Below, piece by piece: positions 3,036 to 54,299 of a DNA stretch of 64,000 nucleotides; positions within the stretch are counted from its first letter, which is position 1, and every line of letters starts with the position of its first letter. Position numbers and translations under genes: made by a program. The stretch spans positions 49,335-113,334 of the forward strand of contig SHZT01000009.1 in NCBI GenBank assembly GCA_009692185.1. The letters are read 5' to 3'. This stretch comes from Gemmatimonadota bacterium. Lineage in GTDB: Bacteria; Gemmatimonadota; Gemmatimonadetes; Gemmatimonadales; GWC2-71-9. The notes under the pieces were generated by a model. It searched no databases, was not told the origin of the DNA, and worked only from the letters and a program-made list of their open reading frames with translations.

Positions 3036-4676
3036 ATGACCACGAATGATTCGTCCGCGCTGAGCCGCCGCGATTTCATCGAACTGGGATCGTTCGCCGC
3101 CGCCGCGGCCGCATTGCCAAAGGTATCCCACGAGAAAGCCGAGCGCCTGGCCGTCCCGGCGGAGCAGCAGGCCTTCGCGCTCGAGGAAGTGACGATCGCC
3201 CAGCTCCAGGACGACATGAAGTCCGGGAAGCGCACATCGCGCGCCATTGCCCAGGCTTACCTGGGCCGGATTGCCGCGATGGACCGGCAGGGCCCGACGC
3301 TGCGCGCGGTACTCGAGACCAATCCCGACGCGCTCACGATTGCCGACCAGCTGGACGCCGAACGGAAGGCGGGCAAGGTGCGGGGGCCGCTCCACGGCAT
3401 CCCGGTGATCGTGAAGGACAACTGCGACACCCACGACCGCATGCAGACCACGGCCGGCTCGCTGGCGCTCGAAGGCAACATTGCCGAGCAGGACTCGGGC
3501 GTCGTGGCACGGCTCCGCGCCGCGGGAGCCGTGATTCTCGCCAAGGCGAACCTGTCCGAATGGGCCAACTACCGGTCCACTCGCTCCTCGTCCGGATGGT
3601 CGGGCCGCGGGCGGCAGTGCAAGAACCCCTTCGTGCTGGACCGGAACCCGAGCGGCTCGAGTTCCGGGACGGGGTCGGCAGTCAGCGCCAACTTCGCGGC
3701 GGCGGGTGTCGGCACGGAGACGGATGGGTCGGTCATCAGCCCGTCGAACGCGTGCGGGCTCGTGGGCATCAAGCCAACGGTGGGCCTGGTAAGCCGCGCG
3801 GGCATCATTCCGATCGCGCACTCGCAAGACACGGCCGGCCCCATGTGCCGCTCGGTATCCGACGCGGCCATCATGCTGACGGCCATGGCCGGGGTGGACC
3901 CGCGAGACTCGGCCACCGCGGAGGCCGCCGGCCACATCTCGGACTACACCACGGTGCTGGACGCGAATGGGCTCCGCGGCGCGCGTATCGGCATCCCATA
4001 CGTACGTGCCGGTACCAACCCGACGGTGGACCGGATCGTCGAGGACGCCATCCGGGTGCTCAAGTCCCTCGGGGCCGAGGTCATTGACCCTGCGCCGATC
4101 GAAACGGCAGGCCAGTTGGGGAACAACGAGCGGGACGTGCTGCAGTACGAGTTCAAGACAGACCTGAACGCCTACCTCGCCACGATGCCGCCCCACGTGA
4201 AGAACCGCACCCTCGCGGACCTGATCGCGTTCAACGATGCGAACAAGGACCGCGAAATGCCCTACTTCGGCCAGGAGACATTCATCGCGTCGCAGGCCCG
4301 CGGGCCGCTTACCGAGCAGGCGTACATTGACGCGCGAGCCAAGTGCATCGAGCTCACACGGACCAAGGGCATTGATGCGACAATGACCAGGTTCGGTCTC
4401 GACGCCATCATGGGGCCGTCTGGTGGGCCGGCAGGGCTGGTGGATCTCGTCGGCGCGGGCGGTGGCGGAGGCGCTGGCAGCTCCCAGTTCCCCGCGGTAT
4501 CGGGGTACCCCCACATCACCGTGCCAGCCGGTTTCCACTTCGGGCTGCCGATCGGCATCTCGTTCTACGGCAGGGCGTGGAGTGAGGCCGTGCTGGTCAA
4601 GTTCGCGTTTGCATTCGAGCAGGCGACCAAGGTCCGGAAAGCGGCCGGGTTCATTCCGACGCTGGCGTTGAGCTGA
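3036..4676 (+). CDS. amidase (amidase-signature family), Tat-exported
   Basis: It has the Gly/Ser-rich signature GSSSGTGSAVSANFAAAGVGTETDGS and a twin-arginine leader SRRDFIELGSFAAAAAAL. Confidence 0.9.
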   Translation: MTTNDSSALSRRDFIELGSFAAAAAALPKVSHEKAERLAVPAEQQAFALEEVTIAQLQDDMKSGKRTSRAIAQAYLGRIAAMDRQGPTLRAVLETNPDALTIADQLDAERKAGKVRGPLHGIPVIVKDNCDTHDRMQTTAGSLALEGNIAEQDSGVVARLRAAGAVILAKANLSEWANYRSTRSSSGWSGRGRQCKNPFVLDRNPSGSSSGTGSAVSANFAAAGVGTETDGSVISPSNACGLVGIKPTVGLVSRAGIIPIAHSQDTAGPMCRSVSDAAIMLTAMAGVDPRDSATAEAAGHISDYTTVLDANGLRGARIGIPYVRAGTNPTVDRIVEDAIRVLKSLGAEVIDPAPIETAGQLGNNERDVLQYEFKTDLNAYLATMPPHVKNRTLADLIAFNDANKDREMPYFGQETFIASQARGPLTEQAYIDARAKCIELTRTKGIDATMTRFGLDAIMGPSGGPAGLVDLVGAGGGGGAGSSQFPAVSGYPHITVPAGFHFGLPIGISFYGRAWSEAVLVKFAFAFEQATKVRKAAGFIPTLALS

Positions 4677-4683
4677 CCAGCCG

Positions 4684-5499
4684 TTGAAAATCTTTGCCGA
4701 CCAGGCGCTGTCCCGGCGCCTCGAACGAACAGAAGCGACGGCCAACGCGCGGTTCGTCGAGGCACGGGCTTCCCTTTTCCCGAAAAGCGGTGCCACCTGG
4801 ATCGAAGTCGCCGGCGCCTACGCCATGTTCGACGGCGTGGACTCGCCGTGCACCCAGACGTTCGGGCTGGGCGTGTTTCAGGCGCCCACGGTGAGTGACT
4901 TCGAAACCATCGAGCAGTTCTTCCGGGAACTGAAGGCGCCGATGCATCACGAGGTCAGTCCATTGGCTGACCCCGCGACACTTGCCCTGCTCACCCAGCG
5001 GGGGTATCAGCCGATGGAGCTATCCAGCGTGACGTTCTGCCCGATCGAGGAAGCCCTCGCGCTGGCCAATCCGCCGGACACCACGATCAAGACGCGGCTG
5101 ATCCGCAAAGGTGAAGGCCAACTCTGGGCGGAGACGGCGGCGAACGGATGGGCTGACTCGGCGCCGAACGGCGTCCTGACGGACCTGATGCGCGTCACTG
5201 CCGAGCGACCGGAAGCGCTTCCGTTCCTGGCGGAACTGAACGGCGCACCTGTCGCGGCCGGCTCGTTGGCCATTACCGCTGGCGTCGCCTTCCTGGCCGG
5301 GGCGAGCACGATCCCGAGTGCGCGAAGACAAGGCGCCCAGCTGGCGCTATTGAGCGGCCGATTGCGCTACGCGGCGGAACAGGGGTGTGATATCGCGATG
5401 ATGTGCGCGGCCCCCGGGAGTGGTTCCCAGCGCAATGCCGAGCGGAATGGGTTCCGGATCGCCTACACGCGGCTCAAGTGGCAGCTGGCTCCTTGCTAG
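4684..5499 (+). CDS. GNAT family N-acetyltransferase
   Basis: The C-terminal acetyl-CoA motif is ARRQGAQLALLSGRLRYAAEQGCD...RNAERNGFR. Confidence 0.75.
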   Translation: MKIFADQALSRRLERTEATANARFVEARASLFPKSGATWIEVAGAYAMFDGVDSPCTQTFGLGVFQAPTVSDFETIEQFFRELKAPMHHEVSPLADPATLALLTQRGYQPMELSSVTFCPIEEALALANPPDTTIKTRLIRKGEGQLWAETAANGWADSAPNGVLTDLMRVTAERPEALPFLAELNGAPVAAGSLAITAGVAFLAGASTIPSARRQGAQLALLSGRLRYAAEQGCDIAMMCAAPGSGSQRNAERNGFRIAYTRLKWQLAPC

Positions 5500-6670
5500 A
5501 GGGCCCCAGCAACAAGGCCAACGCCAGCACGCCGCCAGCCAGGCCGCTCACGATGAGCGCCGCGGGCCCACCCATCCGCGCATACACCATCCCGAACGTG
5601 ATGCCTCCCAGAAGCCCGGCGATGCCCACGCTTGCGTGGTAGATGCCGAACGTCTTCCCCACGCCCCTGTCTCTCGCCGCGGCGGCCACGAGCGCCCGTT
5701 CCGGTGATTCCGTGAGCGCGGCCACCAGCCCGAACACGAGGAACCAGCCCACGCCGCTCCACGGACTCGTGATCGTGGCCATCGCCATGCACACGAGCCA
5801 GTACGCGAACCACCCGCCGAGCATCACGGACTTCGGGCCCAGGGAATCGGACAGCCGGCCGCCGGGATAACTCAGCGTCGTCCGAATGACATGCAACGCG
5901 GCCCATACGAGAGGGGTGAGGGCCACCGGCAGCCCCAGATCCTTCAGGCGCAGCAGGAACAGCATCTCGGGGAACCGGGCGAAGGCGAACAGGACGATGA
6001 GATAGAGGAGAGAGTTGGGCTGGCGTTTCGCGTTGTTCGGGAAGGGGGAAGCGGGAAGCGGGAAGGGGTTGTCCGCTTCCCCCTTCCCGCTTCCCGCTTC
6101 CCCTCTCACCGCCCAAAACACAGCCAACACCGCAATCAGTCCCGGCACCACGCTCCACACGATCACACGGTCCGGGGAAAGTCCCACCTGGCTCAGCAGG
6201 AGCCACGCCACCAGCGGTCCGACGACCGCGCCCGCGTGGTCCATGGCCCGGTGAAACCCGAACGCACGGCCGCGCATGTCGGGCGTCACGGCATCCGCGA
6301 TCACGGCGTCGCGCGGCGGCGTGCGTAAGCCCTTCCCGACGCGATCTGTCGCGCGGAGCGCGATCACCTGCCACGCGGCCGTGGTCGCGCCGATTACGGG
6401 CCGGGTCACCGCGGCGATGCCGTAGCCGGCGAGGATCAGCGGCCGGCGGAGCCGCGGGCGGTCCGCCAGGAATCCGGACCAGAGCTTGGCGGCGGCGGAC
6501 AGCGCCTCGGAGATCCCGTCGAACAGGCCAAGCGAGAGGGCGCCGCCACCCAGCGACGCCACGAGCGCCGGGATGAGCGGGTAGATCATCTCGCTGGCGA
6601 GATCGTTGAAAAAGGAGACGAGGCCCAGGGATTTGACGACGGGCGGGAGGCCCCGCTCCGATTCACTCAC
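5474..6670 (-). CDS. MFS transporter
   Basis: It has about 12 hydrophobic segments and MFS loop motifs (DRPRLRRPLIL, DRVGKGLRTPPRDA). The central loop carries the repeat-derived insert GEAGSGKGEADNPFPLPASPFP. Confidence 0.85.
   Translation of the reverse strand: MSESERGLPPVVKSLGLVSFFNDLASEMIYPLIPALVASLGGGALSLGLFDGISEALSAAAKLWSGFLADRPRLRRPLILAGYGIAAVTRPVIGATTAAWQVIALRATDRVGKGLRTPPRDAVIADAVTPDMRGRAFGFHRAMDHAGAVVGPLVAWLLLSQVGLSPDRVIVWSVVPGLIAVLAVFWAVRGEAGSGKGEADNPFPLPASPFPNNAKRQPNSLLYLIVLFAFARFPEMLFLLRLKDLGLPVALTPLVWAALHVIRTTLSYPGGRLSDSLGPKSVMLGGWFAYWLVCMAMATITSPWSGVGWFLVFGLVAALTESPERALVAAAARDRGVGKTFGIYHASVGIAGLLGGITFGMVYARMGGPAALIVSGLAGGVLALALLLGPSSKEPAAT
6045..6103. repeat. perfect 24-bp inverted repeat with 11-nt loop, built of GGGAAGC heptamers, inside the MFS CDS
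   Basis: GGGGAAGCGGGAAGCGGGAAGGGG (6045-6068) pairs with CCCCTTCCCGCTTCCCGCTTCCCC (6080-6103). The arms are exact reverse complements (hand-checked). Confidence 0.9.
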
Positions 6671-9597: not shown

Positions 9598-10791
9598 ATG
9601 ACCGACACCATTTCCGCTTTGTCCCGCCACCCGGCGCTCACCCGCGGTCACGAACGCCTGATTCGCACAGACGCCCGCACCGTCGCGTGGCAAACGGCGA
9701 TCTGCGAGACGCCCGCGCCAACTGGCCGGGAACAGGCCCGGGGCGCCAAGGTCTCCGGGTTACTGCGCGAGATCGGCTTGACGTCGGTGTCCACTGACGA
9801 CGTCGGCAACGTGATCGCGTGGTGGGGTCCCGCGGACCGGGCCCCGGTGGTCATCGCCGCGCACCTCGACACCGTATTCGGCCCCGGGGTAGATGTGTCA
9901 GTTCGAAAGGACGGCGACCGGCTTATCGGGCCCGGCATTACAGACAATGCGCGCGGCCTGGCCGGCATGCTCGCCCTGGCCGATGTCGTGGCGTCGGGCC
10001 AATGGGCGACCGCGAAGCCCATCGCTTTCGTCGCCACGGTCGGCGAGGAAGGCGCGGGCGACCTGCGTGGCGTGCGGCATCTCTTTGGCGAACGGAAGCT
10101 CGCGGCGGATTCGGTCATCGTGCTGGACGGCGCCGGCGACGACCGCGTGGTCCATGGCGGCCTGGGGTGCCGCCGCTATCGGTTCATGTTCCGTGGCCCC
10201 GGCGGCCACTCGTGGTCCGCATTCGGCGCGCCGAACCCGGCCCACGCGGCGAGTACGCTCACGCAGGCCGTGGCCGAACTGCCCGGCAGGGAAACGCCGC
10301 GTACGACCTGCTCCGTCGTGGGAATCGGCGGCGGAACCAGCCTCAACTCAATACCCGATGAGGCATGGGTCGAAATTGACCTTCGGAGCGAGGGCACCGC
10401 GCCGCTTGAGGAGATCGAACGCGTGCTCCACGCCGCGGCCCGGCTCGGAATGGATCGTGAAAATGCCCGAAAAACGCTGGGGAGCCGAGCGCTCGACCTG
10501 ACCGTGGCGGTCATCGGAGATCGGCCCTCCGGCGTGACACCGGCCGACCACCCGCTGGTGCAGGCTGGTCTGGATGCCACGCGCGCAGTCGGCCGGCGGC
10601 CGGCGCTCGCGACTGCCTCCACGGACGCCAACATTCCGATTTCCCTGGGAATTCCGGCGATCGCGTTGGGGGCCGGCGGCAAAGCCGGAGACACGCACAG
10701 CGCAACGGAGTGGTTTGAGAATGCCGATGGACCGGCGGGAATATTTCGGGCGTTGCTGGTGCTGGCCGCGGCTGCCGGGCTCAACAAATGA
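9598..10791 (+). CDS. M20/M25/M40 family metallopeptidase
   Basis: The sequence shows ..VVIAAHLDTVF..., GITDNARG and GEEGAGDLRG metal-ligand context. The start is chosen at MTDTISAL (9598). Confidence 0.8.
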   Translation: MTDTISALSRHPALTRGHERLIRTDARTVAWQTAICETPAPTGREQARGAKVSGLLREIGLTSVSTDDVGNVIAWWGPADRAPVVIAAHLDTVFGPGVDVSVRKDGDRLIGPGITDNARGLAGMLALADVVASGQWATAKPIAFVATVGEEGAGDLRGVRHLFGERKLAADSVIVLDGAGDDRVVHGGLGCRRYRFMFRGPGGHSWSAFGAPNPAHAASTLTQAVAELPGRETPRTTCSVVGIGGGTSLNSIPDEAWVEIDLRSEGTAPLEEIERVLHAAARLGMDRENARKTLGSRALDLTVAVIGDRPSGVTPADHPLVQAGLDATRAVGRRPALATASTDANIPISLGIPAIALGAGGKAGDTHSATEWFENADGPAGIFRALLVLAAAAGLNK

Positions 10792-10814
10792 GAAGTAAGA
10801 AGTGAGAAGTAAGA
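10789..10814. repeat. left 26-bp terminal inverted repeat of the four-helix-bundle cassette
   Basis: TGAGAAGTAAGAAGTGAGAAGTAAGA. Its first three bases are the stop codon of the M20 peptidase gene. Confidence 0.9.
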
Positions 10815-10819
10815 CGGAG

Positions 10820-11176
10820 TTACTCGCGTCGAACCTTCTTCAGCAAACCCATCACCAACGCCTGACTCTCCCGTGCCGTGGCAACGGCCTTCGCCACCAC
10901 GTCACCCGGCACGAGTTGGGACTCCTCGAGGAGCTCCAAGAGGTCAGATGTTTCCACCGCGGAACCGTAGGCAATCACGAGATGGTTTCTGAAGCGACGC
11001 GATGAGCGTACGGCGTAGCCTTCGGCAATGTTCAATTGCACGGACAGGGCGGCACGCTGAAGCTGGTTGAACACCGCCGACGCCGACGGCTGCCAATGCT
11101 TGCGGCAGAGTTCCAGCACCTGCAGAACCACCGCGTGCGCCCGCTGCCACGCCAAGAGCGTCTTGTGGGTCTGCAT
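10820..11176 (-). CDS. four-helix-bundle protein (23S rRNA intervening-sequence protein / Avd-like family)
   Basis: The translation is MQTHKTLLAWQRAHAVVLQVLELCRK...QLQRAALSVQLNIAEGYAVRSSRRFRNHLVIAYGSAVETSDLLELL. The NIAEGY..R and A.GS..E signatures are typical of this family. Confidence 0.85.
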   Translation of the reverse strand: MQTHKTLLAWQRAHAVVLQVLELCRKHWQPSASAVFNQLQRAALSVQLNIAEGYAVRSSRRFRNHLVIAYGSAVETSDLLELLEESQLVPGDVVAKAVATARESQALVMGLLKKVRRE

Positions 11177-11250
11177 TTCACGAGAGTAATCACCGAGCCG
11201 TGGCAGGAGAGGAGCGAACAAACGCGGGGTGGAGCGAAAAAGCGCGACTT

Positions 11251-11276
11251 TCTTACCTCTCACTTCTTACTTCTTA
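11251..11276. repeat. right 26-bp terminal inverted repeat of the four-helix-bundle cassette
   Basis: TCTTACCTCTCACTTCTTACTTCTTA. Its reverse complement matches the left repeat at 24 of 26 positions. Its last three bases are the stop codon (TAA on the minus strand) of the nucleotidyltransferase gene. Confidence 0.9.
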
Positions 11277-12257
11277 GGGCGCCTTCGCTACCTCGCCCCT
11301 GGTCACGATCATCCGCTTGAGTTTCTGACCAATCACCTCCGAACCTGGTCCCACCAGGCACTCCTCCAGCGTGGAGCCGACGATCTTCGCACCTTCGCCT
11401 ATGATCGTGTCCCGGAGCACGCTGGTCATGACGACCGACCCCGGCTCGATGGACACGTTGGGCCCCAATGTGCAATCCTCCAGTTCGACGCCATCCGCCA
11501 CAAACACAGGGTCGAGTATGCGAACCTGCGCGCGGGGGCTCGGACGCTTCGCACTACCATGGCTCAACAGGTGCAGGTTGGTCTCCAGCACGGTCTCGAT
11601 CTTGCCGCAGTCATACCAGCCGGCGACCGGCGCCGCGAGGATCTTCCGACCGTGATCCACCATGTGCTGGAAGGCCTCGGTGAGGTAGAACTCGCCCTTC
11701 ATGGGCGGCTGTGACCTGGTCCAGGCAATCCCGTCGAACAGCGCCTTCCAATCCTTCATGTAGTAGAGGCCGATGTTGGCGAGCTTGGAAATGGGCTCTT
11801 TCGGCTTCTCGACAATCTTCGTCATGTACCCGTGCGCGTCCGTCACCACCACGCCGAAGCGCTGGTAGTCCTCCACTTCCTTGGCCCAGATGATGCCGTC
11901 GGCCTCGGTGCGCTGGATGAGGGAAAGATCGGCGTCGAAGAGGGTGTCTACGAAAATGATGAGGACGGGCCCGCTGACGTACGAGCGGGCGAGGTCAATC
12001 GCGCTCGCGGTGCCGTCCTGCACCCTCTGCTCGATGAACCGTGCCGGCTGGCGGTAATGCGTCCGGACGTACGCCTCGACCTGCTCCTTCAAGTGCCCGG
12101 TAATAAAAATCAGCTCTTCGACGTCGAGCTGATTCACCTGATCCATGACGTAGTCCATCACCGGGCGCCCGGCGACGCGAATCAGCGGCTTGGGAATCTC
12201 TTTGGTGAGCGGGAGCAGGCGGGTGCCTTTCCCCGCCAGCGGAATAATGACCTTCAC
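11274..12257 (-). CDS. sugar-phosphate nucleotidyltransferase (NTP-transferase domain plus hexapeptide-like C-terminus)
   Basis: N-terminus is MKVIIPLAGKGTRLLPLTKEIPKPLIRVAGRPVMDY. Confidence 0.8.
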   Translation of the reverse strand: MKVIIPLAGKGTRLLPLTKEIPKPLIRVAGRPVMDYVMDQVNQLDVEELIFITGHLKEQVEAYVRTHYRQPARFIEQRVQDGTASAIDLARSYVSGPVLIIFVDTLFDADLSLIQRTEADGIIWAKEVEDYQRFGVVVTDAHGYMTKIVEKPKEPISKLANIGLYYMKDWKALFDGIAWTRSQPPMKGEFYLTEAFQHMVDHGRKILAAPVAGWYDCGKIETVLETNLHLLSHGSAKRPSPRAQVRILDPVFVADGVELEDCTLGPNVSIEPGSVVMTSVLRDTIIGEGAKIVGSTLEECLVGPGSEVIGQKLKRMIVTRGEVAKAP

Positions 12258-16821: not shown

Positions 16822-16823
16822 GG

Positions 16824-16899
16824 TAAGAAGTGAGAGGTGAGAAGTAAGAAGGAGAGCCGCCACCTTCTTGCTTCTCACTTCTTACGTCTTACTTCTCAC
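16824..16899. repeat. cargo-less hairpin of the same GAGAAGT/AAGAAGT repeat family (about 28-bp stem, 11-nt loop)
   Basis: TAAGAAGTGAGAGGTGAGAAGTAAGAAGG-AGAGCCGCCAC-CTTCTTGCTTCTCACTTCTTACGTCTTACTTCTCAC. Hand pairing gives 24 Watson-Crick pairs, 3 G-U pairs and 1 mismatch. It lies between the porin stop and the TPM gene start. Confidence 0.85.
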
Positions 16900-16915
16900 T
16901 ATCTTTCCCGGCGCG

Positions 16916-25720: not shown

Positions 25721-26299
25721 ATGAAGAGTGCCGTGGTTCTCCTTGCCGCCGCTTCGCTGGTCGGGTCGGGCACGCTGTCGGCCCAGCAACCGGCCGCCGC
25801 CCCGCCGGCGCCGCCACCGCTCGAGATCGGCGCCGTGGCGCCGGACTTCGCCATGCCGGGCGCCACCCGCTACGGCGTTCTGCGGGACCCGATCAAGCTC
25901 AGCGACTTCAAAGGGAAGACGGTCGTGCTGGCCTTCTTCTTCCGCGCCCGAACGCGTGGCTGAACCATCCAAATGCACGCGTACCGTGATCAGTACGCGC
26001 AGATCTTCAGAGGCGGACAGAACGTCGTCCTCATCGGCATCAGCGTAGACAGTGCCGGGGCGCTGGCTTCATGGGCCAGGGATGACCAGTTCCAGTTCCT
26101 GATGGGATCCGACACCGACCAGGCGGTCGGCAAGGCTTACGGCGCTATTCGCGGTGGCTCCGACAACCGGAACCTCTTCGTGGTGGGACCGGACGGGAAA
26201 ATTGCCTGGCGGGCGACGCCGTTCCGCGAGATAGACCCGCTGGCGTACACCGAGCTGGCAGCGGCGCTCGACAAGATCTCACCGCCCGAGCAGAACTAG
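25721..26299 (+). CDS. exported peroxiredoxin (AhpC/TSA-Bcp/AhpE-like) with TGA at the peroxidatic Cys position (candidate selenocysteine)
   Basis: ORFs 25721..25963 and 25973..26299 share one frame. Joined, they read ...FKGKTVVLAFFFRARTRG[TGA]TIQMHAYRDQYAQIF...VVLIGISVDS...DNRNLFVVGPDGKI. The signal peptide is MKSAVVLLAAASLVGSGTLSAQ. Confidence 0.7.
25978..25999 (+). promoter_or_regulatory. candidate bacterial SECIS-like hairpin
   Basis: CGCGTAC (25978-25984) pairs perfectly with GTACGCG (25993-25999). The loop is CGTGATCA. The stem starts 15 nt after the TGA at 25961-25963. Confidence 0.45.
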
Positions 26300-26394
26300 A
26301 CGGATAGGCGGATAGACAGGTAGAAAAAGGGCGGAGACCGATCTTGGTCCCCGCCCTTTCGTTATCTGTCCATCCGTCTATCCGCCTATCCGTC
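26299..26394. repeat. long inverted repeat built of GGATAGG/CGGATAG units, between convergent genes
   Basis: GACGGATAGGCGGATAGAC at 26299-26317 is the exact reverse complement of 26376-26394. The inner parts pair imperfectly. The right arm encodes the last residues and the stop of TlpA. Confidence 0.9.
26324..26359. terminator. bidirectional intrinsic terminator
   Basis: AAAAAGGGCGGAGACC-GATCTT-GGTCCCCGCCCTTT forms an 11-bp stem with one mismatch. It is flanked by an A-run and a T-run and sits between convergent genes. Confidence 0.7.
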
Positions 26395-50147: not shown

Positions 50148-51707
50148 TCAGTCTAAGCCAAATTCCTTCAGCTTGCGATACAACGTTCTCTCGCCAATCT
50201 CGAGCTTCTGCGCCGCCCGCCGCCGGTTCCCCCGGGACTCCCGGAGCGCCGCCTCGATCGCCGCCCGTTCCACCTCGCTCATCTTCATCCCGGGCCGATA
50301 CACCACCTCGCCGCTTGCGGCCGCGAGAGCCCCGTCCGTCCTGCCCGTCCCGTCCGTCTGGTCGGACTCATCCACCCTGACTCCCACCTCGTACGCCGGC
50401 ACCCGCCCCATGTCGATCACTTCGACGCGTTGGGGCGATTCGTCGATTCGGTGACGCAACTGCTCGATCTGGAGCTTGAGCTCAACCAGCGACCGGAATA
50501 TGAACTCCAGTTCGTGACCCTGGAGCCCCGCGCCCCCACCCGCGCCCGGCCCAGGCACGCGCATCGGAAGGAGGCGTGTCCCGCCTTCCTTCACATCCCG
50601 CGGAATGTCGTTCGCCGTGACCTCGCGCCCGTGCGCCAGCACGACCATGGACTCGATGAGATTCCTGAGCTCGCGTACATTGCCCGGCCAGTGCGCGTTC
50701 ACCAGGATCTGCATCGCTTCGGCCGTGAGCCCCACGAACTGACGCCCATGCTGTGCGGAAAGCTCACGCACGAATTTGCGGATCAGGAGCGGGATGTCGC
50801 CCTTCCGCTCGCGAAGCGGCGGCAGGTAGATGGACAGGACGTTCAGCCGGTAGAACAGGTCGTCGCGGAACTGCCCGATCGACACCTGCTCCTTGAGCGA
50901 CCGGTTGGTTGCCGCGACCACCCGTACATCTACCCGGATCGCCTCGGCGCCGCCCACCCGGAAGAACGACTGGCTCTCGAGGACGCGGAGCAGCTTGACC
51001 TGCGTCGAGAGCGGCATCTCACCGACCTCGTCGAGGAACAGCGTCCCGCCGTTGGCCAACTCGAAACGCCCCAGCCGCCGCTCGGCCGCGCCGGTGAACG
51101 AGCCCTTTTCGTGGCCGAAGAGCTCGGACTCTAGAAGTGTCTCAGGCAGGGCCGCGCAATTGACCGCGACGAACGGCTTGGCGCGCCGGGGCGAGAGCGC
51201 GTGGATACCCTGCGCCACCAGTTCCTTGCCCGTGCCGGACTCCCCCTCGACCAGCACCGTCGAGGACACGGGCGCCATCTGCTCGATCTTGACCAGCACT
51301 TCCTGGATCGCCGGGCCTTCGCCGATGATGCCGGTCCGCTCCTGGAGCCGGCGGCGTTCGATGAGCCGCCGCGCCCGGGCGACGACATCGGCGGGGTCCA
51401 CCGGTTTCACCGCCCAAGCGGTGAGGCCGAGCCGCTGGGCGACCCGTGGCGGGTCTGCCTCGGTCGGCTCGAACAGGCCCAGCGTGGACACCGAACGGTC
51501 CCGTGCCATGGCGATGAGATCGGCAGCCGGCCGCTCATGGACCGCGCCACTCAGGATGACTACGTCGGGATCGGCGCCCGTGAGCACCGCGCGCACGTCG
51601 TCCATGGACGAAACCATCGTGGTGGCAAGACCGTCCTTCTCGAACGCCGCGTTGGCCCGCACGGCGGTCTCGAGGTCGTCCATGGTCAGCAGGACGCGGT
51701 CCGTCAT
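50148..51707 (-). CDS. sigma-54-dependent response regulator (receiver, AAA+, Fis-type HTH)
   Basis: Contains [11 protein letters not shown] (Walker A), the GSFTGA loop (GAFTGA type), FLDEVGEM and a C-terminal HTH ([20 protein letters not shown]). Confidence 0.9.
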
Positions 51708-52240
51708 TTGTGGTCCGTGGGAGCGCCGGCCAGCAACTGAACGGCGTGCTCGATGAGCGGCTCGAGGACGGTCAGCCCTTCCTTCACGCCTGACGGACTT
51801 CCGGGGAGGTTGACGATGAGCGCCTGGGCCCGCGTTCCCGCCAGCCCGCGGGACAACGCGCTGCGCGGCGTGTTCGCCTGCCCCGCCGCCCGAATGGCCT
51901 CGGCAATGCCGGGGGCCTCGCGCTCGATCACCGCCCGGGTGGCTTCGGGCGTGACGTCCCTGGGAGACAATCCGGTACCGCCAGTGGTCAGGATCACCTG
52001 CGCCACGTCGTCATCCGCCCAGCGGGAAATAACGGAGGCGATGCGGTCGGTTTCATCCGGCACGACTTCGCGGGCGGATACCTCGTAGCCGCGGGCGGCC
52101 ACCCAGTCGGCGATGGCCTTGCCGGACGTGTCCTCTCGCTTCCCCTGGAAGCCGAGGTCGGAAATGGTGAGCACAGCTACTCGAACCGGAGGGCGTCGCA
52201 CGGCCGCCGTACTTTTCCCTTTTCCCTTTTCCCTTTTCAC
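51704..52240 (-). CDS. mog: molybdopterin adenylyltransferase / MoaB-Mog family
   Basis: Contains [27 protein letters not shown] and NLPGSPSGV. The called GTG start (52240) reads [10 protein letters not shown] from the heptamer repeat. The real start may be an internal GTG (..AVRRPP). Confidence 0.8.
52212..52239. repeat. (CTTTTCC)n heptamer tract, which reads (GGGAAAA)n on the coding strand, at the gcvT/mog junction
   Basis: There are three exact heptamers and one partial copy. Confidence 0.9.
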
Positions 52241-53352
52241 GCCTTTGAAGCTTTCGCTTTCCTCGCACTTCCCTGCCGGTAGAACGGCATCCGTACCACC
52301 TCGGCTTCGATCCGCTTCCCGCGCGAGTCCACCTGGAAGCGCGTGCCTGGCTCAACCGAATGCGTGGGAAGGAACGTGGTGCCGATGCCTTCCTTGAGCG
52401 AGGGGCTGAATCCGCCGCTCCGGACGACGTCGATCTTGGTATCCCGCAGGTACACGTCGTACCCGTGGCGCGGAATCGCGCCCCGGTCGATCATCCGGAA
52501 CCCCACGAGCTTCCGCGTGACGCCCTTTTCCTTGATCGCGCGCAGGGCCTCCTGGCCCACGAACGGCTCGGCCTTGTTGAGCTTCACGATCCAGCCGAGC
52601 CCGGCCTCGTACGGGTTGATCGTGTCGTCGATGTCATTGCCGTAGAGCGCGTACCCCATTTCCAGCCGCAACGAATCCCGGGCACCCAGGCCGATCGGTG
52701 TCGCCCCGCCGGCTTCCACCAACGCCTTCCACATCACCCCCGCGTCGCGGTTCCGGAAATACAGTTCGAATCCGTCTTCCCCGGTGTAGCCCGTGCGGGA
52801 GACGAAGCACTGCACGCCGGCGATATCGCCGACCTTGAAGTGGTAGTACCCGATGTCATGCAGCGGGACCTGGGTGAGCGAACGCAGCAGCGTCTCCGCC
52901 TTGGGGCCCTGCACGGCGAGGAGTGACACCTCGTCCGAAATATTCCGGAGGCGTACGTCTCCCGACCGCCGTGAAGAGATGTGGGCCCAGTCCTTCTCGA
53001 TATTCGACGCGTTGACGACCATCATCAGCTTGTCGCCGAACTGGTAGACGATGCAGTCGTCCACCACGGTTCCCTGGTCGTTCAGAATGGCCGAGTACTG
53101 CGCCTGCCCGATATCGAGTGTCGAAACGTCGTTCGAGGTCATCCGGTTTACGAAGTCATTCCGCTCGCGGCCGGTCACTTCGAACTCGCCCATGTGGGAC
53201 ACGTCGAACACGCCGACCCCCGTGCGCACGGCCTCGTGCTCCTTTGTAATGCCGGTTGGGTACTGTACCGGCATCTCGTACCCGGCGAACGGGACGATCT
53301 TGCCCCCGGCCGCCACATGGAAGTCGTAGAAGGGCGTGCGTTTGAGTGTCAT
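52237..53352 (-). CDS. gcvT: glycine cleavage system aminomethyltransferase T
   Basis: Contains MTLKRTPFYDFHVAAGGKIVPFAGYEMPVQY and FDVSHMGEF. The start is chosen at 53352 (ATGA overlap with the argF stop). Confidence 0.95.
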   Translation of the reverse strand: MTLKRTPFYDFHVAAGGKIVPFAGYEMPVQYPTGITKEHEAVRTGVGVFDVSHMGEFEVTGRERNDFVNRMTSNDVSTLDIGQAQYSAILNDQGTVVDDCIVYQFGDKLMMVVNASNIEKDWAHISSRRSGDVRLRNISDEVSLLAVQGPKAETLLRSLTQVPLHDIGYYHFKVGDIAGVQCFVSRTGYTGEDGFELYFRNRDAGVMWKALVEAGGATPIGLGARDSLRLEMGYALYGNDIDDTINPYEAGLGWIVKLNKAEPFVGQEALRAIKEKGVTRKLVGFRMIDRGAIPRHGYDVYLRDTKIDVVRSGGFSPSLKEGIGTTFLPTHSVEPGTRFQVDSRGKRIEAEVVRMPFYRQGSARKAKASKA

Positions 53353-54299
53353 CGTGTTTTGCTTTTCCCTTTTCCCTTTTCCCTTTTCCCGCTTCTCGAT
53401 CCGCCCATCAACGTCGCCATCAACGCTTTCTGCACGTGAAGCCTGTTCTCCGCCTGGTCCCACACCCGGGAATGCGAACCTTCCATTACCTCGTCGGTGA
53501 CTTCCTCCCCACGGTGTGCGGGCAGGCAGTGAAGAAAAATGGCGTTCTTTGCGGCGAGCCCCATGAGATTGTCGTCCACCATGTATCCGTGAAACGCCAG
53601 CCGCCGTGCTTCGGCTTCCGCTTCCTGGCCCATCGAAGCCCAGACATCCGTGTTGATCACGTGCGCTCCCCTGGCTGCCTCTTCGGGCTCCTCGGTCACG
53701 GATACGTCGGCTCGAGACTTGGCCCACTCGAAAATCTCCCGGTTGGGCTCATAGCCCTCCGGGCAGGCGATGCGCAGGGTAAACCCCAGCTGGCCGGCCG
53801 CCTGCAACCACGTGTTGGCCATGTTGTTCCCGTCGCCGATCCACGCCACGACCTTGCCCTTCCAGCCGCCCAGGCATTCGCGCACCGTCAGGAGATCCGC
53901 GAGCACCTGGCAGGGGTGCAAGAGGTCCGTGAGTCCGTTGATGACCGGTACGGCCGCGTGACGGGCTAGGTCCTCGACCTCGTCGTGCGCATACGTCCGG
54001 ATGACGATCCCGTTCAGGTAGCGTGAGAGCACCCGCGCGGTGTCACGGATCGGCTCTCCCCGGCCCAGCTGGAGGTCACGAGACGAGAGGAACATGGGGT
54101 GCCCGCCGAGCTGATAGGTGCCCACCTCGAACGACACCCGGGTCCGCGTGCTGCTCTTGGCGAACAGCATCCCCACGGCCTTGCCGGCCAGTGGCCTGGC
54201 CAGGTACTTCCCCGCCTTCATCGCGGCCGCCATGTCCAGCACGGCCCCGATTTCCTTCGGGGAAAAGTCCGTCAGTGCGAGAAAGTCCCGTTTAGGCAT
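53349..54299 (-). CDS. argF: ornithine carbamoyltransferase
   Basis: Contains STRTRVSFE, HPCQVLAD, DVWASMGQE and HCLPAHRGEEV. The start is chosen at MPKRDF (54299). Confidence 0.9.
   Translation of the reverse strand: MPKRDFLALTDFSPKEIGAVLDMAAAMKAGKYLARPLAGKAVGMLFAKSSTRTRVSFEVGTYQLGGHPMFLSSRDLQLGRGEPIRDTARVLSRYLNGIVIRTYAHDEVEDLARHAAVPVINGLTDLLHPCQVLADLLTVRECLGGWKGKVVAWIGDGNNMANTWLQAAGQLGFTLRIACPEGYEPNREIFEWAKSRADVSVTEEPEEAARGAHVINTDVWASMGQEAEAEARRLAFHGYMVDDNLMGLAAKNAIFLHCLPAHRGEEVTDEVMEGSHSRVWDQAENRLHVQKALMATLMGGSRSGKREKGKGKSKTR
53354..53397. repeat. (CTTTTCC)4 heptamer tract, which reads (GGGAAAA)4 on the coding strand, at the argF/gcvT junction
   Basis: Four exact heptamers span 53362-53389, flanked by degenerate copies. 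They are translated as the argF tail [14 protein letters not shown]. Confidence 0.9.

Follow-up and report, generated by a model that had tools for sequence, protein, structure and literature searches.

What is a gene of the family discovered in the intervening sequences (IVSs) of 23S rRNA doing between two protein-coding genes, and why is it enclosed there by a pair of complementary repeats? The question is raised by a 488-nt element at positions 10789-11276 of a 64,000-nt stretch of DNA from a Gemmatimonadota bacterium (contig SHZT01000009.1 of assembly GCA_009692185.1, positions 49,335 to 113,334), hereafter the window. To our knowledge, the open reading frame (ORF) of the rRNA IVSs has had no known function for some 30 years, and its free-standing copies are annotated merely as 'four helix bundle protein'. 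Such free-standing genes, rRNA IVSs and heptameric inverted repeats are already known separately. The gene-in-hairpin package found here across phyla has apparently not been described; no paper linking the gene family (PF05635) to heptamer arrays was found in the open-access literature, and an earlier description is possible. We propose, with a probability of roughly one half, that the element is an IVS-type gene cassette lying outside rRNA, which is transcribed by read-through and in whose RNA the two arms form a stem, a potential target of RNase III. This reading is favoured because the dimensions (about 490 nt, with a stem of 24-26 bp), the gene family and the operon positions match those of ORF-bearing rRNA IVSs; co-transcription, formation of the stem in vivo, cleavage by RNase III and the mode of spread are its inferred parts.

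The element fills the space between two convergent genes exactly, from stop codon to stop codon. Its left arm (10789..10814, + strand; TGAGAAGTAAGAAGTGAGAAGTAAGA) consists of about 3.5 tandem heptamers GAAGTRA, is purine-rich on the + strand and begins with the triplet TGA (10789-10791), the stop codon of an M20/M28 peptidase gene (9598..10791, + strand). The right arm (11251..11276), upstream with respect to the enclosed gene, carries (GAAGTRA)n on the minus strand; its first minus-strand triplet, TAA at 11274-11276, is the stop codon of a gene for a sugar-1-phosphate nucleotidyltransferase (11274..12257, minus strand). The latter is the last ordinary gene of a kinase-cupin-nucleotidyltransferase run, upstream of and co-directional with the enclosed gene. 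That gene (10820..11176, minus strand, 118 amino acids) is separated from the upstream arm by a 74-nt spacer (11177..11250, minus strand). Positions 11251-11276 match the reverse complement of 10789-10814 at 24 of 26 positions, and a repeat finder places the arms at 10791-10814 and 11251-11274 (24 nt, 96% complementary, 436 nt between them). An earlier note, made by reading the sequence, had given these coordinates, this complementarity, both flanking stop codons and the protein-coding context, all of which hold. It had also spoken of terminal inverted repeats. The arms are indeed complementary, but they are not unique repeats, since Tandem Repeats Finder (TRF) reports a period of 7 in both (3.4 and 3.9 copies). 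The heptamers follow one another head-to-tail without spacers, unlike a clustered regularly interspaced short palindromic repeat (CRISPR) array, in which repeats alternate with unique spacers. An assembly artefact is excluded because two more independent assemblies, from other sequencing runs, carry the cassette base for base, so that it is invariant across three samples.

When positions 10770-11300 are folded with their flanks in the sense of the gene, the closing stem is present in both the minimum free energy (MFE) and the centroid structures, as the earlier note had foreseen. Its comparison with ORF-bearing 23S IVSs also stands, size, stem length and gene family being in agreement: the IVS of Coxiella burnetii is 428-444 nt long, carries an S23p ORF and has a terminal stem of 28 bp, inside which RNase III cleaves (PMC4990558). 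Like the IVSs of Leptospira and Coxiella, the cassette (488 nt here, in the same size class) combines a PF05635 ORF with an ORF-enclosing stem of 24-28 bp. Unlike them, it does not reside in helix 25 or 45 of 23S rRNA but between protein genes or, in related cases, inside mRNA operons; at gathering thresholds the window is free of Rfam matches of any kind, rRNA included. A further difference, as judged against the published dimensions of IVSs, is that the stem of the cassette is built of tandem heptamers whose unit varies. Free-standing copies of the gene can thus keep the IVS layout, an ORF closed by a long stem, with a defined and conserved anatomy.

The repeat of the cassette recurs once more in the window without a gene. 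At 16822..16901 (+ strand), just upstream of a TPM-domain gene, an arm, a loop of about 10 nt and a complementary arm form a hairpin of the GAAGTRA type, which has period 7 in both halves (TRF) and folds at -47.2 kcal/mol (z = -6.6). With at most one mismatch allowed, GAAGTRAGAAGT has 10 matches in the window where 0.15 would be expected, and all 10 are confined to the cassette arms or to this hairpin. The cargo-less copy reported in the earlier note is therefore real.

The enclosed gene is the only PF05635 gene of the window. Its product belongs to the S23p/23S rRNA IVS protein family with an Avd-like fold, as had been suspected: it scores 72 bits against PF05635 (cut-off 33.8), its sole Pfam match, and 75.8 bits against TIGR02436 (cut-off 24). 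An AlphaFold2 monomer model has four helices and a mean predicted local distance difference test (pLDDT) value of 96.5. In Foldseek the best Protein Data Bank match is 2GSC (XCC0516 of Xanthomonas campestris; template modelling score (TM) 0.85, root-mean-square deviation 1.2 Å), followed by 2RLD (BT_0352; TM 0.85). The model also matches Avd, the accessory protein of diversity-generating retroelements (DGRs), both as 4DWL (TM 0.78) and as the Avd chains of the DGR ribonucleoprotein 8UB7, at a sequence identity of 11-14%. Pfam and TIGR profiles detect no nuclease, recombinase, reverse transcriptase or HUH/Y1 transposase domain in the 118 amino acids, and the protein has no match in PADLOC or PHROGs. 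A protein of identical sequence has been deposited for a Gemmatimonadetes metagenome-assembled genome.

The layout is not peculiar to this locus. In all of the first three homologues, fetched at random, a purine-rich heptamer array and its complement enclose the gene, as they do in three further ones with the units GCGGTRA, GAGGTRA and GTGAACG. A profile scan of species-representative genomes, with an alignment of 18 sequences, yielded 79 loci, almost all from Gemmatimonadales, of which the 72 with complete flanks were used for array statistics. Period-7 arrays lie on both sides of the gene in 47 of the 72 and on one side in 13. The upstream unit is the reverse complement of the downstream unit at 7 of 7 positions in 25 of 49 loci and at 6 of 7 in another 16. 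The median distance is 76 nt from the end of the upstream array to the start codon and 6 nt from the stop codon to the downstream array. The density of arrays is 2.87 per kb beside the PF05635 gene and 0.25 per kb in the outer flanks, an 11-fold difference (over 345 kb). Pairs in which a purine array is followed by a pyrimidine array fall into two classes: those with gaps of 1-185 nt and no gene (21 pairs), and those with gaps of 411-508 nt, which enclose PF05635. No other protein cargo was found between array pairs in the DNA sampled. A strand-specific polarity linked to the gene, with the purine arm upstream, was considered and discarded, because an inverted pair reads purine-then-pyrimidine on both strands. 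The mid-sized cargoes of 61-185 nt were likewise examined as decayed PF05635 genes and gave no significant tblastn match (best E about 0.001). Several of them hold a palindromic repeat of about 100 nt (core GAGCGAAGCGAGGGATC followed by its complement), which is nested in the loops of heptamer hairpins at L076 3540-3665, L086 6040-6160, L034 2040-2130 and L068 1700-1760; such loops may be landing sites for small elements. Most metagenome contigs with close homologues are only 0.5-1.5 kb long, as would be expected if the arrays break assemblies, and this, together with the risk that the arrays are mistaken for CRISPR arrays, is of practical importance.

The units themselves are diverse. At least 20 were found, among them GTGAGAA, GTRAGCG, GTRAGAG, GTGAACG, GGGAGAC, GCGAAAA, GGGAACT and GGGAGAT, and paralogous cassettes of one genome differ in unit. 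The window has GAAGTRA where locus L002, whose protein is 63% identical, has GGAGTRA. Complementarity, in contrast, is kept: duplexes between cognate arms average -46.0 kcal/mol against -26.9 for arms of different loci, the cognate partner ranking first of 45 in 20 cases and among the top three in 67%. Two orthologous cassettes, L015 and L033, whose neighbouring genes are more than 90% identical, have GAGGTGA and GCGGTAA, respectively, each on both arms. In these comparisons pairing between the arms, rather than the sequence of the unit, is the conserved feature, and the arms change together. In L033 (3001-3120) the orthologue of the L015 ORF is cut short by a premature stop some 40 codons in, and both arms are kept; this is a decaying gene copy with intact arms.

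These data bear on a possible regulatory role, in which the encoded protein, a putative pentameric ring, would bind the arrays in its own mRNA or DNA, and perhaps those in solo hairpins too, and thereby control its own or neighbouring expression. Repeated units would suit a multimeric binder, the linkage of gene and array is strict across phyla, and proteins of the Avd family do bind nucleic acid in the DGR ribonucleoprotein (8UB7). However, related proteins with different units (L015 and L033; the window and L002) are hard to reconcile with a sequence-specific binder, and a simple operator does not need the complementarity that is conserved between the arms. We regard this explanation as very unlikely.

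The layout is shared by more distant members of the family (identity about 32%) in low-GC genomes, where the upstream spacer is just 20-45 nt and contains a Shine-Dalgarno-like sequence. A cassette with arms of the GAGTAGN type lies between tig and clpP in a low-GC metagenome lineage, another with arms CACCAGR/CTGGTGR between exbB and exbD in a Thermodesulfovibrionales bacterium, and a third, with an 8-nt unit, at the junction of a wzz-like and an AAA gene. In Xanthomonadales the orthologue of XCC0516 is found between accB and accC, at the same site throughout. There, Xanthomonas arboricola has (GGGAATC)4 upstream of the gene and a degenerate GATTCCC array ending at the accC ATG, and Rhodanobacter soli has (GGGATTC)4 and (GAATCCC)4, which is compensatory change in an orthologous cassette. 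The family thus spans Gemmatimonadales, a Thermodesulfovibrionales bacterium, two low-GC metagenome lineages and Xanthomonadales, that is, at least three phyla, and its cassettes sit inside the core operons accB-accC, tig-clpP and exbB-exbD. Such positions force both arms into one transcript. Folding in context predicts a long-range stem for the cassettes of the window, Rhodanobacter and tig-clpP, and hence for three phyla. Of the 186 GGGAATC sites of X. campestris, 70 form convergent pairs (Rehm et al. 2015, PMC4692102), and a supplementary table of the same paper lists a (GGGAATC)4 site between bccP (XCC0517) and XCC0516. With a crystal structure, genetics and published RNA-seq at hand, XCC0516 of X. 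campestris offers a tractable test system. The exbB-exbD locus (L089, 1930-2520) is built somewhat differently, as (CACCAGR)2-3, the gene, (CACCAGA)~9, a loop and (CTGGTGR)~10, so that the gene interrupts the 5' arm instead of lying in the loop; the motif CACCAGTAAAA stands ahead of the gene and again at the loop.

A consensus scan of the window detected no sigma-70-like promoter in the 74-nt spacer. ATTG-type motifs are visible by eye in many spacers of the Gemmatimonadales loci, and a promoter of the gene's own was considered there; the pattern TTGnnn-N15-19-[TG]AnnnT is present in 9 of 56 spacers against 5.3 ± 2.2 in shuffled sequences, and the idea was abandoned. In the Gemmatimonadales cassettes the upstream neighbour is co-directional in 20 of 31 scorable cases (20 versus 11), and the downstream neighbour is convergent in 27 versus 7. 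The purine strand of the arms, which is the one read inward from either side, has stop codons in all three frames in 64 of 90 arms, whereas the outward strand is free of them in 83 of 90. Each of the 52 neighbour ORFs that read inward terminates within -24 to +67 nt of the start of the array, 32 of them in the array itself, so that the coincidence of arm and stop codon remarked upon in the earlier note is a family trait. A TGA or TAA in each heptamer does not define the arrays, given that the units GGGAGAC, GCGAAAA and GGGAACT contain no stop; it is a frequent property only.

These features can be accommodated in the following model of an IVS-type cassette. Having no detectable promoter of its own, the gene would be expressed by read-through, the likely source being the co-directional nucleotidyltransferase operon. 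Within the read-through RNA the two arms would pair into a stem of about 24-26 bp, closing off the ORF as in rRNA IVSs. Cleavage of this stem by RNase III would yield a discrete cassette RNA with paired ends, uncoupled from the host message, and the insertion would be tolerated. The arrays would grow and shrink by slippage, their complementarity being kept by selection for pairing, by gene conversion between the arms, or by both. The hairpin at 16822-16901 would then be the same element minus its cargo. Slippage-prone arrays would keep pairing in any register, which may be a reason for their persistence.

Several observations weigh against this model. The folding z-scores of whole cassettes are modest (-1.9 to -2.4 for those of the window, Rhodanobacter and tig-clpP), and 12 of the 72 homologous loci have no arrays at the threshold used. 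The upstream neighbour is divergent in 11 of the 31 scorable cassettes, and the upstream arm cannot be transcribed by read-through from such a neighbour. The use of 7-nt repeats as building blocks of the stems is not accounted for by RNase III. Finally, compensatory change is equally expected from a hairpin in single-stranded DNA, from a cruciform or from gene conversion between the arms.

To compare the junction in relatives, metagenomes were scanned with the nucleotidyltransferase. The closest relative (L094, 85% identical) ends inside the gene, so that its junction is unreadable. Two relatives (L095 and L096, with nucleotidyltransferases 70% and 69% identical) keep the convergent M20 peptidase and have neither cassette nor arrays. 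The overlap of the two genes is about 14 nt in L095. In L096, whose nucleotidyltransferase shares the C-terminus EVAKAP* with that of the window, they are 17 nt apart, and the gap holds a mini-palindrome, TGTGAGC-TGCGC-GCTCACA (3984-4006). The arm of this palindrome is identical to a single unit of GTGAGCG, a common heptamer; the palindrome may be a seed for expansion into an array hairpin, or a coincidence. The search for empty sites, which the earlier note had put forward as a check, thus found them, and because the junction is empty in relatives the cassette must have been gained or lost here. A second comparison concerns a junction with the same unique flanks in L068 and L076. In the former a purine array, PF05635 and a pyrimidine array follow one another, while in the latter the arrays surround 185 nt of non-coding DNA; at the neighbouring junction of these two loci the situation is reversed.

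Gain or loss of this kind is what a mobile element acting at the level of DNA would leave behind. Its arrays would fold as hairpins or cruciforms in single-stranded or supercoiled DNA, to be recognized by a host or element factor; the PF05635 protein would be an accessory factor and the cargo-less hairpins non-autonomous or decayed copies, by analogy with repetitive extragenic palindromic (REP) sequences and their REP-associated tyrosine transposases (RAYTs), or with attC sites and the integron integrase. Besides presence and absence at orthologous junctions, such an element would account for cassettes and solo hairpins sharing a unit in one genome (L066 and L076, both from SMAG_U15827 and both GGGAGAC), and for arms that keep structure and not sequence, as attC sites do. 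A possible role of the IVS ORF in mobility was proposed by Ralph and McClelland, as cited in PMC4990558, and Avd, the structural relative, works in a retroelement ribonucleoprotein. On the other hand, no direct repeat indicative of a target-site duplication flanks the arms, the gene table for the 10 kb to either side lists neither a reverse transcriptase nor a transposase nor an integrase, and the protein, as stated above, lacks nuclease, recombinase and reverse transcriptase domains and is matched in neither PADLOC nor PHROGs. Six related loci are also devoid of reverse transcriptase domains in their gene tables. Moreover, the accB-accC site is fixed across Xanthomonadales and the window copy is invariant in three samples, so that movement is rare at best. 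Of the mobile element suspected in the earlier note, gain or loss therefore remains, whereas the duplication and the enzymes are missing, and we consider mobility at the DNA level unlikely.

The cassette may be compared with known small elements. The layout is that of a REPtron, in which inverted copies of a hairpin repeat stand on the two sides of a gene and the repeat is also dispersed, without cargo, at gene ends. However, the gene encodes a 118-amino-acid helical bundle and not an HUH/Y1 (IS200/IS605-like) transposase, and instead of one RAYT per REP family there are many paralogous cassettes per genome, each with its own unit. With the Avd genes of DGRs the cassette shares the fold, but no reverse transcriptase and no pair of template and variable repeats is present within 10 kb. 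Like MITEs (miniature transposable elements with inverted repeats) and small derivatives of insertion sequences, it is short, intergenic, bounded by inverted repeats and present or absent between relatives; unlike them, it has variable tandem-repeat arms, no target-site duplication and no family-wide terminal sequence for a transposase.

Another view holds that the association is passive. Intergenic hairpins made by slippage would be retained as terminators, 3'-end stabilizers or processing sites, the arms serving the neighbouring genes and not the cassette, and PF05635 would merely reside or survive inside. Solo hairpins are indeed abundant: the window has heptamer and octamer examples of other units at 6039-6102 and 26297-26392, related genomes have 0.25 arrays per kb away from the gene, and in L002 heptamer hairpins stand on both sides of tRNA-Ala and before tRNA-Gln, which suggests that they belong to precursor RNAs there. 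The preference of cassettes for the 3' ends of transcription units (downstream neighbour convergent, 27 versus 7) points in the same direction, as do the persistence of a hairpin with different content at the L068/L076 junction and the 186 GGGAATC sites of Xanthomonas with 70 in convergent pairs (PMC4692102). Yet no U-tract terminator was found at the cassette, PF05635 is the sole protein-coding cargo between array pairs in the sampled DNA, and arrays are enriched 11-fold beside it. The coupling also recurs across phyla with unrelated units, and does so inside tight operons that need no terminator (accB-accC, tig-clpP). A passive association is in our opinion improbable, much as DNA-level mobility is. 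In L002 (2857-3752) the PF05635 gene has two complete (GGAGTRA) hairpins at its flanks, and another GGAGTRA hairpin lies between tRNA-Ala (3497-3570) and tRNA-Gln (3679-3752).

The arrays resemble heptameric repeats described in other bacteria, namely the GGGAATC pairs of Xanthomonas (PMC4692102), the short tandemly repeated repetitive (STRR) sequences of cyanobacteria and the TAACTGA repeats of Beggiatoaceae (PMC4679880). All are tandem 7-nt repeats in intergenic DNA, often arranged as convergent inverted pairs, capable of forming stem-loops and variable in length between relatives. They were published as G-quadruplex or regulatory simple repeats, whereas here they are the arms around a PF05635 gene, a link that is absent from the searched text and supplements of the heptameric-repeat papers (PMC4692102, PMC4679880). 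The gene family is thereby tied to another unexplained feature that is over-represented in bacterial genomes. In a large CRISPR survey, '23S rRNA IVP' figures among the genes associated with CRISPR arrays (PMC10910872); possibly, heptamer arrays were mistaken there for CRISPR repeats.

It is tempting to go one step further and to regard PF05635 as the trans-acting partner of the heptamer hairpins, with the cassettes as the 'autonomous' version of a repeat system that is widespread. The protein, presumably a pentameric ring, would bind the tandem repeats or help to copy or maintain them, as RAYT does with REPs or Avd with its reverse transcriptase. We hold this to be doubtful and quite unlikely as it stands. 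If true, the arrays of Xanthomonas, cyanobacteria, Beggiatoaceae and Gemmatimonadales (GGGAATC, STRR, TAACTGA) would be footprints of PF05635, and a function would be at hand for a family that has been without one since its discovery in rRNA IVSs in 1993.

Other repeat arrays of the window deserve brief mention. The hairpin at 6039-6102, (GGGAAGS)4, lies within the called ORF of a 398-amino-acid MFS_1 transporter (5474-6670, minus strand), in frame, at about residues 190-210, which corresponds to the central loop between the six-helix halves. The one at 26297-26392, at a gene end, is a third kind of repeat-array hairpin, in which inverted 8-nt arrays (TAGACGGA/TAGGCGGA) surround a GC-rich inner stem-loop. 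Finally, the repeat (CTTTTCC)4, which is (GGAAAAG)4 when read on the minus strand, forms perfect arrays at 52212-52238 and 53362-53390 in direct, not inverted, orientation. They lie about 10-20 nt upstream of the minus-strand starts of a MoCF_biosynth gene (51704-52192) and of gcvT (52237-53352), and may act as translation-initiation or intercistronic elements.

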